From Minisyncoccia bacterium (GTDB lineage Bacteria > Patescibacteriota > Minisyncoccia > Phycocordibacterales > CALRBL01), in the NCBI GenBank assembly GCA_038230075.1, contig JBBRNV010000001.1, positions 114,667 to 178,666 on the forward strand: DNA of 64,000 bases, read 5' to 3'. Each line of letters opens with the position of its first letter. Position 1 is the stretch's first letter. The position numbers and the translations under genes are program-made. Below, piece by piece: positions 4,651 to 26,607 of the stretch. The notes under the pieces were generated by a model. It searched no databases and was not told the DNA's origin. It was given only the letters and a program-made list of their open reading frames with translations.

Positions 4651-6087
4651 TTGTCTAAAAAGCATGATATAGTAGGCCTACAGCGCCCAAACAGGGCCAT
4701 AAAAGACACAATGGATACATTACACTCAAATACTCAAAAGGTAGTCACACGCTTCGCTCCAAGCCCTACAGGCCTTTTCCACTCTGGTAGCTATCGAACA
4801 GCTGTATTTTCATATTTATATGCCAAAAAATATAATGGTGAATTCATACTTCGAATCGAAGATACCGACAAAGAGCGTTCAACAAAAGAATATGAAGAAA
4901 ATATTATTGAAAGTTTGAAATGGCTCGATCTTCCACATGACCATTTCTATCGACAATCAGATAATGTTGCGCGTCACAAAGAAGTCTTGCTGCAAATGAT
5001 TGCAGACGATAAAGCCTACATTTCAAAAGAAGAACCAAAAGTTGAAGGTGGCAGAACCGAAGTAATTCGATTTCGAAATCCAAATCGAGTTGTAACTTTT
5101 CACGACATCATTCGAGGAGACATCAGCTTCGATACAACTGAATTAAAAGATTTTGTCATTGCAAAAAGTTTCGACGAACCACTTTTTCACCTTGCAGTTG
5201 TTGTTGATGACTTTGATGAAGGAGTAACTCACATCATTCGAGGAGAAGATCATATTTCAAATACTCCACGGCAAATTCTTATTCAAGAAGCAATTGGCGC
5301 AGCAACTCCTATGTATGCACATCTTCCACTTGTTCTTGCAGCTGATCGAACAAAACTTTCAAAACGAAAAGGAGCACTTTCAATGACTGAGTATCGAAAA
5401 AAAGGATACGAAGCTGCTGCGTTATTAAATTATATGTCACTTATTGGTTGGAATCCTGGCACTGATCGAGAATATTTTACAAAAGACGAATTAATCGTTG
5501 AATTCGATCTTGCACGTGTACAAAAAAGTGGAGCAATATTTGATGATGTAAAACTACAATCAATCAACAGACATTATCTTTTAGAACTTAGTGATGAAGA
5601 ATTTGAAAAGCGAACAAAAGAATTCTTACCGGAATCGATCACTTCACTTCCTACATTTAATACTCGAAAGGAAAAGTTCTTCAAGAATCTTCGAGAGCGC
5701 ATTTCATATTTCGGAGAAGTCACAACTCTTTCTGATCTTGGTGAATTTGATTACTTCTTCTCAGACCCCGTGTATGCAGTCGAACAACTCTTGTGTTCAG
5801 AAAAGATGAGAAAAAACGTGGTAATTACCATGTCTGATATTTCAACATATCTATCTGGTGTCGTCGAAGTTCTTGAAAATTTGAACAATGAAGCATTTGA
5901 TCATTCAGAAACGGTCAAGGAAGCATTAATGCCTTATGCAGACTCACTTCATCGAGGTGGGGTATTATGGGCTACTCGAATGGCATTATCAGGAAAGGAA
6001 AAGTCTCCTGATCCATTCACCCTTATCTCACTATTTGGAAAAGATGATTCTATAACTCGTTTAAAGGCTGCGGTTGCCAAAATCTAG
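4651..6087 (+). CDS. gltX: Glutamyl-tRNA synthetase
   Basis: RFAPSPTG...H HIGH-type motif and KLSKRKG KMSKS motif. The true start may be an internal Met near 4711. Confidence 0.9.
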   Translation: MSKKHDIVGLQRPNRAIKDTMDTLHSNTQKVVTRFAPSPTGLFHSGSYRTAVFSYLYAKKYNGEFILRIEDTDKERSTKEYEENIIESLKWLDLPHDHFYRQSDNVARHKEVLLQMIADDKAYISKEEPKVEGGRTEVIRFRNPNRVVTFHDIIRGDISFDTTELKDFVIAKSFDEPLFHLAVVVDDFDEGVTHIIRGEDHISNTPRQILIQEAIGAATPMYAHLPLVLAADRTKLSKRKGALSMTEYRKKGYEAAALLNYMSLIGWNPGTDREYFTKDELIVEFDLARVQKSGAIFDDVKLQSINRHYLLELSDEEFEKRTKEFLPESITSLPTFNTRKEKFFKNLRERISYFGEVTTLSDLGEFDYFFSDPVYAVEQLLCSEKMRKNVVITMSDISTYLSGVVEVLENLNNEAFDHSETVKEALMPYADSLHRGGVLWATRMALSGKEKSPDPFTLISLFGKDDSITRLKAAVAKI

Positions 6088-9986: not shown

Positions 9987-10199
9987 AAATTCCTCAAAGA
10001 AACAATAGGGAAGTGAGTCCCCTACAAAATAACAAAAACTGTTTACGGTAATTTTGTTATAGATTTATTGAGTTAGAAGAACAGTAAAAAAGTATTTTGA
10101 TAATTCTGCTACCAGAATCTCATAGTTTAAACATGAATGTAGTCTAGACTTAACAGACCACACAGAGATTATTAAATTTAATTACACATAGAAGGTATG

Positions 10200-10700
10200 G
10201 GCTATATAGTAATGTCGCAAAAGATATATTGTGCGACATAGATATGTAGACTAACCGCTCGAGGATACATACACCTGTTAAGGTTTCGTACAATCCCCGA
10301 GCGATTCTGACGATGGTGAAATTTTAAAATACCAGGTGATTGAAAGTTAACGTCGCTTGACGGTAACTGGGATAGCCAAACCGCCAGCTCGACTGTGAAG
10401 GTACACAGGGTACGGCACGAAACGTTTGATCGACGGAAGGATCGTGATTTCGTCACCTTGAAGAGTTACGACCTCTTGCAGGTTCAGATATTCTGTTACA
10501 CGAGCAGTATGTGGTCCGAACCTTCGTGTCGCTCTCCTACCCAAGCGCCGTCTGATTTCGAAGTTGAACTGACCTTCAGATATCGTTTTGTTCGTTCCCC
10601 GAGGTTTTTGCTGACGCAGCACTTCGAGACATGCTCCAAAGACGATTCGAAGATCTTTTGGCAATCCTTTGCCATTTTGGTGATCATGTGATCTGTATTT
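10200..10700. other. GC-elevated ORF-poor island; candidate structured RNA or decayed gene
   Basis: About 500 nt with visibly higher GC than the flanks. Multiple local hairpins (atgtcgca/tgcgacat; cgtc..gacg; ggtac..gtac). Only short overlapping ORFs on both strands; no recognisable protein. Confidence 0.3.
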
Positions 10701-10762
10701 ATTATGCAACTAACAGTACTTGACGTAAAGTGTTATGTGTGTTGTTTCGTTTTATATGTACA

Positions 10763-12928: not shown

Positions 12929-13011
12929 ATAAGTGAATACTGTTGATGGTTGACTTGTTAACTATCATACTAAATTACTCGAAATAAGGCAAATGTATTC
13001 ATATAAATGAA

Positions 13012-13046
13012 GAGACCGAGGAGCGACAGGTGCGCGCCTCGGTCTC
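13012..13046 (-). terminator. Perfect 10-bp GC-rich hairpin (GAGACCGAGG...CCTCGGTCTC) flanked by A/T tracts
   Basis: Read directly from the sequence. Lies 3' of the 13100..13420 minus-strand ORF. Confidence 0.5.
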
Positions 13047-13099
13047 GAAAGACTGAAGAAAAAAACTGGGGGTAAAAAAGAACTGGTGGTGAGGTGATG

Positions 13100-13420
13100 C
13101 TAGGCGGCCACAAAGCCCTTGCTGGGGACGCACCTGATCTGCTTCAGCGTCTCGAGGGCAATGAGCGCCTTCTGGACCCACGAATCGCGAACCCGTCCGA
13201 AAACGGCCTTCAACGTCTCGATAATCCGAGTGCGTCCGATGGGGTGACTGAACGACTTGATGCACGCCAGGACTTTCGCCTTAATGTGCATGTGAAGCTC
13301 GTTGGGAGCAGTCTCCAGATGGGAGTGCTTCTTGGCGAGCTTACGGAGATTCGCTTCCGGCACCACATCAGTGGCGAGGTGTCCGGAGGAGTGGTTACCA
13401 ACAGAGGGCTTTGAAGCCAT
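13100..13420 (-). CDS. Small protein of unknown function in a GC3-rich island
   Basis: 106-aa ORF with GC3 ~75% in a ~35% GC genome. It has its own downstream hairpin. No confident family assignment. Confidence 0.5.
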   Translation of the reverse strand: MASKPSVGNHSSGHLATDVVPEANLRKLAKKHSHLETAPNELHMHIKAKVLACIKSFSHPIGRTRIIETLKAVFGRVRDSWVQKALIALETLKQIRCVPSKGFVAA

Positions 13421-13563
13421 GGATGCTTAATTTTACTAGGTGGGAACAAGAACCTTCGCGCAATGGCGCTTAAGTTCGGTGATGGAATCAAACTGACTTC
13501 CAAGGTAAAATGATACCTTACCTTTTAAAAAGGTCAAGGTGTGAATAGTATTTAATGTATATT

Positions 13564-16085: not shown

Positions 16086-16247
16086 CTCGTTAGTATATCA
16101 AATACAACTCGATTTGACTGAAATCAAATAATGTTGCAATATCTGTGAAAGGTAGTTCATTTAAAAGGCTTTGGTTTAGGGATAGATTTTTGAAACCAAT
16201 ATTGGTGCTGAAAATCTGTCTCTCAACCATCAACCCGAATCGCAGTT

Positions 16248-16631
16248 ATGCAAACCACTACTCAACCCCACAAAGCCGTTGCTTCGCTCGAAGGCTTCGT
16301 TGTTTTTATGATCTTCATCACAACCTTTAGTGCCGGCATTGGCATGACAGGATTCATTCAAGCTCCCGTTCTCTTCATCGGTGTCGCCATGTTGGCCACA
16401 CTGAATCGAAAGGTTACGTTGGTTTTCCTGGTCATCGTCGCCATTGTTAGTAGCCAAGGTTGTCTTGTCTGGCTTCATCATCACTACCGAAACTCCGACT
16501 TTTTCGTGATGCATTTTGCCTCGATGATCGCAACCGTCACCGCGTGCGCATCGGGTTACAACATCGCACCCCACATCGGTTGGATCCGAAGGTTTATCGC
16601 ACACATTAAAAGCGAAGACAGGAGGGTCTGA
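16248..16631 (+). CDS. Small membrane protein (uncertain strand; mirrored by a 141-aa antisense ORF)
   Basis: Three hydrophobic helices. A hairpin (aatcctccg...cggaggatt, 16672-16700) plus T-run lies downstream. The antisense ORF 16230..16655 is Asp/Glu/Asn/His-rich, as expected for the shadow of a hydrophobic ORF. Confidence 0.35.
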   Translation: MQTTTQPHKAVASLEGFVVFMIFITTFSAGIGMTGFIQAPVLFIGVAMLATLNRKVTLVFLVIVAIVSSQGCLVWLHHHYRNSDFFVMHFASMIATVTACASGYNIAPHIGWIRRFIAHIKSEDRRV

Positions 16632-16707
16632 CCACCTCAAATTGTCACGAGTCAAAACAACAAAATCCTCCGCCTAGCACCCGGAGGATTTGCAGTTTTC
16701 AGTGTAG

Positions 16708-16801
16708 GAAAATAAAAATACCTTGTTTGGAACGATTCCGCAGACCCTGTTCAAATTTATGGGTCGAGGACTTAGTAACAAAACAAGGTATTTTTATTTT
16801 C
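16708..16801. repeat. Long-stem/conserved-loop palindromic element, copy A
   Basis: 21-bp perfect AT-rich inverted repeat (gaaaataaaaataccttgttt / aaacaaggtatttttattttc). It encloses a 52-nt loop, GGAACGATTCCGCAGACCC...GGGTCGAGGACTTAGTAACA. It ends 3 nt from the rpmA stop. Confidence 0.6.
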
Positions 16802-26351: not shown

Positions 26352-26555
26352 ATGCCCGAACAGAACACCCTTGAAGGAGCCTTGGCCCGCCTTCGTTCCA
26401 CAATGAAAGACGTTGGCGAAGTGCGAGCAACAGCTCAACAACTTCAGACAAGAAAGCACACTTTCGTCTCAGGGGCGTGGAAAAACGCCACCCGAATCGA
26501 AAGATCGCAACCACGCGACTCTCTCGATTATCTCATCGAAAAAGACGGTTGGTGA
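26352..26555 (+). CDS. Small hypothetical protein (67 aa) in a GC-elevated segment
   Basis: Coding-like codon pattern, followed by two hairpins including a strong intrinsic terminator. No family recognised; could alternatively be an ncRNA. Confidence 0.3.
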   Translation: MPEQNTLEGALARLRSTMKDVGEVRATAQQLQTRKHTFVSGAWKNATRIERSQPRDSLDYLIEKDGW

Positions 26556-26575
26556 AAACCAACCGAAACCAAGGA

Positions 26576-26607
26576 GCCCGACCTCGCGTCGGGCCTTTCC
26601 TTTTTAT
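26576..26607 (+). terminator. Rho-independent terminator (GCCCGAC CTCGC GTCGGGC + CTTTCCTTTTTATAT)
   Basis: Perfect 7-bp GC stem followed by a T-tract. It also lies 3' of the convergent SGNH hydrolase gene. Confidence 0.7.

Follow-up and report, generated by a model that had tools for sequence, protein, structure and literature searches.

We report on a short GC-rich island in a 64,000-nucleotide stretch of DNA from Minisyncoccia bacterium (contig JBBRNV010000001.1 of assembly GCA_038230075.1, positions 114,667 to 178,666), which is called the window below; coordinates refer to the window unless another contig is named, and the genome as a whole is called the host. The island lies between a metallophosphoesterase gene (hereafter, the phosphoesterase gene) and the genes for an HlyD-like protein and an MFS transporter (the pump genes). 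We believe that it is a real single-gene unit on the minus strand, with GC-rich codon usage, that it encodes a protein likely to bind DNA, and that the slot it occupies is shared with two relatives of the host; taken as a whole, this reading has in our judgement about an even chance of being right. The coordinates of all features are collected in Table 1.

The compositional anomaly is large. The GC content of the 500-nucleotide (nt) block 13001-13500 is 0.540, while no other block of this size in the window exceeds 0.456, and the mean of the window is 38.6%; the elevation over about 500 bp pointed out in a preliminary description of this DNA is thus real. In windows of 321 nt (mean 0.386, standard deviation 0.038), the peak of 0.586 falls at 13089-13409, and the runner-up peak is 0.511. 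The open reading frame (ORF) of 106 codons on the minus strand has an overall GC content of 0.58 vs. 0.37-0.40 in the adjoining genes. Its GC content at the first, second and third codon positions (GC1, GC2 and GC3) is 0.57, 0.42 and 0.74; the earlier figure of about 75% for GC3 agrees with our measurement (0.74-0.75), as does the translation quoted with it. GC3 ranges from 0.24 to 0.40 in seven neighbouring genes; in 42 host ORFs of 150 amino acids (aa) or more it is 0.264±0.032 and never exceeds 0.37, which places the island gene at z=+14.9. The three-base GC periodicity of the ORF is significant (chi-square p=8e-6). The surplus of GC is confined to the coding region, mainly to its third positions, and to a hairpin downstream; the GC content is 0.45 in the 5' region 13421-13503 and 0.42 in the 3' spacer 13047-13099.

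The codon-usage comparison recommended earlier also indicates a strongly foreign composition: an index of the codon adaptation type, computed against host codon usage, is 0.32 for the island gene and 0.65±0.034 for host genes. Codons rare in the host are used systematically. TCC, which makes up 1% of host Ser codons, and CTG (3%) occur three times each; CCC (8% in the host) accounts for four of the five Pro codons; A occupies only 6% of third positions (A3), and the AAG:AAA ratio is 10:1. The encoded protein is high in Ala, low in Asn and free of Tyr. Considering that GC1 and GC2 are raised besides GC3 and that the protein is Ala-rich, Asn-poor and Tyr-free, we presume a GC-rich origin of the gene: its codon usage and amino-acid make-up look as if they had been shaped in a genome of ~58-60% GC, whereas that of the host is 38%.

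The island can be read on both strands. The public gene call (P0121), which an exact look-up finds in the protein collection, is a mirror ORF on the plus strand, also of 106 codons; the same look-up finds no exact copy of the minus-strand protein. We consider that the minus-strand ORF is probably the true coding frame and that the public call is likely to be wrong, since the codon-position statistics, a -10 box of the host type and the 3' hairpin all favour the minus strand. In this frame, GC3>GC1>GC2, C exceeds G at the second position (C2>G2), T at the first position (T1) is low, and the base profile of positions 1 and 2 is near that of host genes. In the plus frame, GC1/2/3 are 0.75/0.40/0.58, G2>C2, and T1 is 6%; this profile is the reversed image of a normal gene and is atypical of real genes. 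The mirror frame is free of stop codons because the sense gene almost avoids A-ending codons. The neighbouring genes, without exception, run on the minus strand. The mirror protein has an isoelectric point (pI) of 6.0, its homology search returned no match beyond itself, and its AlphaFold model, computed from the single sequence, is one long helix with a predicted local distance difference test score (pLDDT) of 57 and a predicted template modelling score (pTM) of 0.26. The contrast with the pTM of 0.47 predicted for the minus-strand protein lends modest support to the minus strand. The absence of the true protein from protein databases would then be explained by the public call having taken the mirror ORF.

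That the plus-strand ORF is the real gene we regard as very unlikely. It is the frame recorded by automated annotation, and a purine-rich GGTGGTGAGG stretch lies upstream of its GTG/ATG start; however, Shine-Dalgarno sites are not used by the host (see below). The start is GTG, and reading the sequence by eye reveals no -10 box at leaderless spacing before it. Together with the mirrored base profile, the single-helix model and the lack of homologues, this speaks against the plus-strand ORF. In addition, the GC3-rich frame is overlooked by the public calls in the two relatives considered below, a pattern consistent with gene-calling software trained on AT-rich genes.

Table 1. Features of the island and of its counterparts in two relatives (contigs L033 and L034)
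Feature	Coordinates	Strand	Basis or properties
Coding sequence of the 106-aa basic orphan protein, ATG start (probable coding strand)	13100..13420	-	ORF listing, codon-position profile, periodicity
Mirror ORF, 106 aa, GTG start; public gene call P0121; likely a shadow of the minus-strand gene	13094..13414	+	exact look-up
-10-like hexamer TAAAAT, ends 9 nt before ATG	13430..13435	-	spacing typical of host leaderless genes
Alternative sigma-70-like promoter (predicted), TTGACC-16-TATCAT, leader ~83 nt	13510..13537	-	consensus scan, 10/12 matches
5' flank (promoter/leader), resembles the 5' flanks of the L034 and L033 counterparts	13421..13510	-	local alignment
AT-rich 26-bp near-palindrome ACCTTACCTTTTAAAAAGGTCAAGGT, just 3' of the phosphoesterase stop codon	13516..13541		read from sequence
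GC-rich stem-loop 54 nt past the stop codon, then UUCAUUUAUAU; probable intrinsic terminator	13012..13046	-	inverted repeat, folding
Stop-codon-proximal segment GTGGCCGCC TAG CATCACCTCACCACC, resembles GTCGCGGCC TGA ACATCACCCACGACC of L034	13072..13102	-	local alignment
Slot ORF of L033	11218-11544 (L033)	phosphoesterase strand	108 aa, GC1/2/3 0.48/0.34/0.68, locus GC 0.37
Slot ORF of L034	4308-4778 (L034)	phosphoesterase strand	156 aa, GC1/2/3 0.63/0.47/0.77

Judging from its signals, the island would be a single-gene transcription unit on the minus strand, the probable coding strand, consisting of a predicted promoter, the 106-codon gene and a terminator hairpin. The hexamer upstream of the gene has the spacing usual in the host: of the 43 host ORFs with 150 aa or more, 27 have a -10-like hexamer whose end is 6-12 nt upstream of ATG, and in ten the distance is exactly 6 nt; the hexamer is often TGATATACT or TATAAT. 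A Shine-Dalgarno-like motif is absent from 39 of the 43. Most genes of the host therefore appear to be expressed from leaderless mRNAs. As to the sigma-70-like site further upstream, promoter-like sites in the region are no more numerous than in shuffled sequences, so that this site is a prediction only. Its -35 element is overlapped by the near-palindrome, which could be the terminator of the phosphoesterase gene or an operator. Two small hairpins are predicted in the 5' flank; a consensus structure for the leaders of the genes in the window, L033 and L034 is not supported.

The perfect 10-bp GC hairpin described earlier downstream of the gene is confirmed: its arms (13012-13021 and 13037-13046) pair without exception, the arms extended to 14 nt are 93% complementary, and the fold has -27.4 kcal/mol (z=-5.4 vs. 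shuffles). A simple terminator scan lists none of the three hairpins found at this place in the window, L033 and L034. The unit is bracketed by an imperfect 12-nt direct repeat, 12933-12944 GTGAATACTGTT and 13541-13552 GTGAATAGTATT; we rejected it as a target-site duplication, since by our own estimate the chance expectation of such a match is ~0.4.

With the whole unit elevated in GC, a strong hairpin and ORFs open on both strands, one may suppose a GC-rich structured non-coding RNA in which the ORF is incidental (compare rRNA, tRNA and RNase P in AT-rich genomes). We find this extremely improbable. There is no Rfam match at the gathering threshold or at E≤10, ARAGORN reports no tRNA or tmRNA in the island, and the fold z is only -2.35 and -2.09 even though the terminator hairpin is included; the strong three-base periodicity and the long in-frame ORFs in three genomes point to coding instead. 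RNase P and tmRNA were rejected specifically: the GGCGAAAGUCC motif occurs at chance frequency, and neither ARAGORN nor Rfam gave a match.

The comparison with relatives is based on the phosphoesterase, of which the protein collection contains an identical copy and otherwise distant relatives only. Contigs of three of these relatives, L033, L034 and L035, were compared, L033 and L034 being the nearest syntenic ones; the identity of their phosphoesterases to that of the window is 50%, 47% and 43% in a four-sequence alignment, and 48%, 45% and 43% by BLASTP. The gene order L9-L27-EVE-~190 aa-phosphoesterase is kept in L033 and L034, and L035 retains part of it (EVE-180 aa-phosphoesterase); the asparagine synthase gene is reached beyond the variable stretch in L033 and L035. 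In both L033 and L034, the slot right after the phosphoesterase gene, on the same strand, is occupied by a GC3-rich orphan ORF; no other ORF of 80 aa or more in either locus has GC3≥0.6 and GC3>GC1>GC2. The local GC content of the L034 slot is 0.61-0.63, with a locus mean of 0.42 and ~0.37-0.41 in flanking windows. More distant phosphoesterase loci (at most 43% identity; L001-L004, L035, L038-L064, L067-L069) are non-syntenic or have no island.

The three slot genes (those of the window, L033 and L034) have much in common. Their proteins are all basic (pI 10.2-10.6), A3 is low in all of them (6-13%), and each is followed by a strong hairpin (-34 kcal/mol, z -3.8, in L034; -26 kcal/mol, z -3.4, in L033). 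The -10-like hexamers read from the sequence are TAGAAT, 11 nt before ATG, in L033 and AACAAT, 12 nt before ATG, in L034. The 5' flank (90 nt before ATG) of the window aligns with that of L034 at a score of 18, compared to 8.1±1.5 for shuffles, of which 1/2000 reach this value; with that of L033 the score is 14 (p≈0.005). The stop-codon regions of the window and L034 align at 14 (shuffles, 7.4±1.4; p≈0.002), and the two proteins share the C-terminal -VAA. The flanks of the window thus resemble those of L034 on both sides of the gene (5' and 3'), and those of L033 on the 5' side only. The recorded gene calls follow the mirror strand in the window (13094-13414) and in L034 (4245-4691), and another frame in L033 (11178-11405). 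Since each call has either the strand or the frame wrong, the true slot proteins are absent from protein collections. The preliminary description had suggested inspecting the loci of relatives and had taken a homologue of similar GC3 in many related low-GC genomes as a sign of selection rather than transfer; GC3-rich orphans do occur in the slot, which comes near that case, but homology of the coding sequences is not demonstrable.

The island protein is basic (pI 10.24) and, as stated earlier, belongs to no assignable family. Nothing in Pfam, PHROGs, NCBIfam, PADLOC or the sequences of the PDB matches it, and the same holds for 5.8 billion clusters searched by word index and for 1.84 billion representatives searched with phmmer. 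No relative came from viral and metagenome contigs scanned with the back-translated sequence, from blastn of the island DNA against phages and plasmids, from tblastn of the protein against phages, or from a Foldseek search with the protein model. The single-sequence AlphaFold model (pLDDT 61, pTM 0.47) is compact, with four predicted helices of 10, 18, 17 and 15 residues, three of them at 39-56, 60-76 and 81-95. The earlier hint at a histone fold is not borne out: no Pfam histone or CBFD_NFYB_HMF match was obtained at E≤10, and the helices do not follow the short-long-short order. BLASTP against the globular domain of linker histone H5 gave no alignment.

One similarity was nevertheless obtained. 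In the tblastn search against plasmids, eight of the 12 records at E≤10 represent one orthologous group of GntR/FCD regulators from Rhizobiaceae. The best match aligns residues 25-106 of the island protein with residues 36-116 of WP_040142200.1 from Rhizobium etli over 82 aa with one gap, at 30% identity and 54% positives (pairwise E=7e-8), and ends with VPSKGFVAA in the island protein and VPNKGFVAA in the regulator. The target segment passes the Pfam GntR model (35.7 bits), and its helices 1-3 and wing are aligned in register. The island protein ends where the putative winged helix-turn-helix (wHTH) ends and has no C-terminal effector or oligomerisation domain (FCD, UTRA, etc.). Our best guess, tentative and somewhat short of an even chance, is a divergent stand-alone GntR-like wHTH at residues ~45-106; it is not meant as a call of family membership. 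More generally, we infer from these features a small, basic, dimeric DNA-binding protein of winged-helix-like type. It can be mentioned that the regulators of Rhizobiaceae themselves (L070 696-1742 in Rhizobium etli pRetIE4771d and L071 735-1703 in Ensifer adhaerens) contain two tandem Pfam-positive GntR domains, and that the Ensifer adhaerens orthologue is unannotated in the plasmid table.

A number of observations weigh against the explanation put forward here, and we list them together. On the side of the fold, the GntR match has a database-wide E=0.6, while controls reach E=3 (reversed sequence) and E=2 (mirror ORF), and all eight GntR matches come from one orthologous group. The Pfam GntR model (27-bit cut-off) is not matched, nor is any Pfam family at E≤10, either with the full protein or with residues 41-106. 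The hhalign comparison with ten canonical GntR domains (10/10 passed Pfam GntR) covers the right 22 columns, but its E=0.087 is no better than that of the mirror control. The AlphaFold model is of low confidence and has no beta wing, with residues 98-106 unmodelled at pLDDT below 50. On the side of the slot, the flank comparison between L034 and L033 is not significant, and the three slot proteins have no similarity to each other detectable by BLASTP or phmmer, so that the case for homology depends on their position, composition and charge and on short alignments of the flanks. The same two programs revealed no similarity of the slot proteins to 3,950 ORFs from all fetched loci; plain blastn among the three cassettes gave nothing significant, and only the position-restricted flank alignments stood out; for the L033 and L034 slot proteins, tblastn against plasmids and scans of viral contigs yielded no match. 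Finally, GC3 stays at 0.7 while the neighbouring enzyme is only 45-50% identical, which neutral evolution does not explain. Acquired genes drift to the composition of the host (amelioration), and a GC3 of 0.7 should be erased over such divergence. The persistence of the high GC3 is the unexplained core of the finding.

It is natural to ask whether the island is a recent horizontal acquisition private to this genome, i.e., a gene from a donor of ~58-60% GC whose drift to the host composition is still to come. The extreme GC3, the raised GC1 and GC2 and an Ala-rich, Tyr- and Asn-poor protein, as in GC-rich genomes, agree with such an origin. The sole weak protein similarity is to regulators of the GC-rich Rhizobiaceae. 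The unit is also self-contained like a phage moron, an independently transcribed single-gene insertion with its own promoter, terminator and deviant GC content (PMC3594210). However, no donor-like homologue was found in the 1.84 billion representatives or in the scans of metagenome and viral DNA. A private recent import is further argued against by the occupation of the slot by GC3-rich orphans in three long-diverged genomes, by the flanks of the window, which resemble those of the two relatives above chance, and by a -10 box spaced as in host leaderless genes. We therefore consider it quite unlikely. Of the recent acquisition proposed in the preliminary description, the foreign composition stands, while a recent event specific to this genome is weakened by the GC3-rich slots of L033 and L034.

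The opposite view is that of a vertically inherited, fast-evolving orthologue in which selection holds host-rare codons, e.g., for throttled or gated translation or for the structure or stability of mRNA. The slot, orientation, charge and terminator common to the three genomes fit it, as do the likeness of the window 5' flank to those of L034 and L033 and of the stop-proximal region to that of L034, the systematic use of host-rare codons in the window gene, and the low A3 in all three genes. On the other hand, the raised GC1 and GC2 point to a past in a GC-rich genome and not to synonymous selection alone; the RNA fold z is only about -2, mostly from the hairpin; and the coding sequences cannot be aligned, which leaves orthology unproven. 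We give this view a minor, though real, share of our credence.

An assembly chimera, or a contaminant insert, was also envisaged earlier, and an abrupt change of composition over ~500 bp is what it would produce. This suggestion can hardly be upheld. Both flanks continue the gene order seen in relatives. A record that lists both NCBI and Logan as sources exists for the mirror ORF, which covers almost the entire island, on a contig of 203 kb. The insert is exactly one promoter-gene-terminator unit, fitted between two genes and carrying expression signals of the host type, including the -10 spacing. No plasmid or phage matches it, and the same anomaly is present in two independent samples. We regard a chimera as highly improbable.

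The comparison with known systems helps to place the single-gene unit favoured here. Like a phage moron, it comprises one small ORF with its own promoter candidates and a strong terminator hairpin, and it is situated between two otherwise syntenic genes with a GC content sharply unlike that of its neighbours. Unlike a moron, it stands among chromosomal genes (L27, EVE, phosphoesterase, HlyD-like, MFS, asparagine synthase) and not in a phage or prophage; it has no meaningful PHROG matches and no relatives in viral contigs; and its slot is filled in three divergent genomes, with flanks similar between the window and each relative. With taxonomically restricted orphans ascribed to horizontal transfer, it shares the lack of homologues, the small size, the atypical composition and the placement within a variable region bounded by conserved genes. 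Most often, acquired DNA is AT-rich; the island, in contrast, deviates towards higher GC, and this deviation recurs at one conserved position in long-diverged relatives.

As regards the protein, the in-register alignment of 82 residues from helix 1 through the wing, its basic character and the helices predicted where alpha1-alpha3 are expected liken it to the GntR wHTH (PF00392; the first wHTH of WP_040142200.1). It differs in failing both the Pfam model and the profile-profile test, with a database-wide E near control noise, and, from full-length GntR regulators, in having no effector or oligomerisation domain. The arrangement also recalls EmrR/MarR-type regulators upstream of EmrAB-like pumps, since a putative winged-helix gene is directly upstream of, and co-oriented with, HlyD-like and large MFS genes. 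Here, however, there is no MarR Pfam match, GC3 is 0.74 vs. 0.24-0.27 in the pump genes, a terminator lies between, and the counterparts in L033 and L034 are present without any pump. Two further candidates were rejected: a target of a diversity-generating retroelement, since blastn of the island against the 64-kb window gave the self-match and two matches of 13-16 nt only, and an integron gene cassette, since there is no repeated hairpin family in 12.6-13.9 kb and none of the neighbours scanned at 9.3-16.7 kb encodes an integrase. Overall, we take the island to be a mis-annotated orphan single-gene cassette of foreign composition, a horizontally derived orphan or moron-like unit, and possibly a stand-alone winged-helix regulator.

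If so, the unit may function as follows. Transcription would start from the -10 box of the host leaderless type, possibly also from the second promoter upstream, and would stop at the terminator hairpin. The product, a divergent GntR-like wHTH lacking an effector domain, would bind DNA and could serve as a small regulator or a nucleoid-associated factor. Its targets might be its own promoter region, the 26-bp palindrome and the neighbouring genes, including the promoter region of the HlyD-like/MFS pump; regulation of the pump is unlikely as a conserved role because the counterparts in L033 and L034 adjoin no pump. The cassette may be old, with its anomalous composition kept, or the slot may have been refilled repeatedly from a GC-rich gene pool while the flanks were conserved; we leave these two readings unranked.

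Several other stretches of unusual composition were noticed. A stretch of ~700 nt (16090-16800) between the EVE-domain and L27 genes has a GC content of ~0.47-0.50 and contains an ORF for a membrane-like protein of 127 aa on the opposite strand (16248-16631, GC3 0.59), followed by the hairpin AATCCTCCG...CGGAGGATT (~16664-16692). The gap between the EVE and L27 genes is only 81-96 nt in L033 and L034, so this stretch looks like another inserted single-gene unit. In the stretch 10000-10760, between the MFS gene and an ORF of 129 aa, the GC content is 0.47-0.50, and there is no confident gene. A minus-strand ORF of 120 aa in it (10347-10709, pI 11.1) shows a weak similarity (pairwise E=8e-4) to a basic ORF of 169 aa in L033 (11756-12265); its frame is uncertain, the mirror ORF 10395-10691 having the higher GC3. 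The L033 ORF comes after the slot gene, and L034 has a comparable basic ORF of 156 aa (4960-5430). On the plus strand, an ORF of 67 aa (26352-26555, GC ~0.51, no Pfam match) precedes a textbook terminator GGAGCCCGACCTCGCGTCGGGCCTTTCCTTTTT (region 26352-26606); it is situated in a GC peak that has no other gene and is flanked by two host genes, and it may be another small inserted unit or a small RNA. In L034, an orphan ORF of 103 aa on the minus strand (2500-2811, GC 0.53, GC3 0.58) directly precedes the phosphoesterase gene; neither the window nor L033 has a counterpart.

Taken alone, the island would be unremarkable, a small orphan gene whose composition is foreign. What runs counter to the expected drift of acquired genes is that one anomaly recurs at one position in three genomes, next to an enzyme only 45-50% identical; this recurrence points either to a site-specific hotspot for cassettes or to selection in favour of host-rare codons. 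It is tempting to go further and to propose that the slot after the phosphoesterase gene serves as a conserved landing pad for GC-rich cassettes of small basic DNA-binding proteins, exchanged or codon-selected, in an AT-rich leaderless lineage and hidden by gene callers; we think this unlikely, if still worth stating. Searches of protein databases cannot find slot genes whose public calls took the mirror strand or a wrong frame, as is the case in the three genomes here. For surveys of orphan genes in AT-rich uncultured bacteria, this is a warning that gene calling may hide such genes. Should the landing-pad proposal hold, a class of proteins would be systematically absent from protein databases, since gene callers trained on the AT-rich host would pick the wrong frame.

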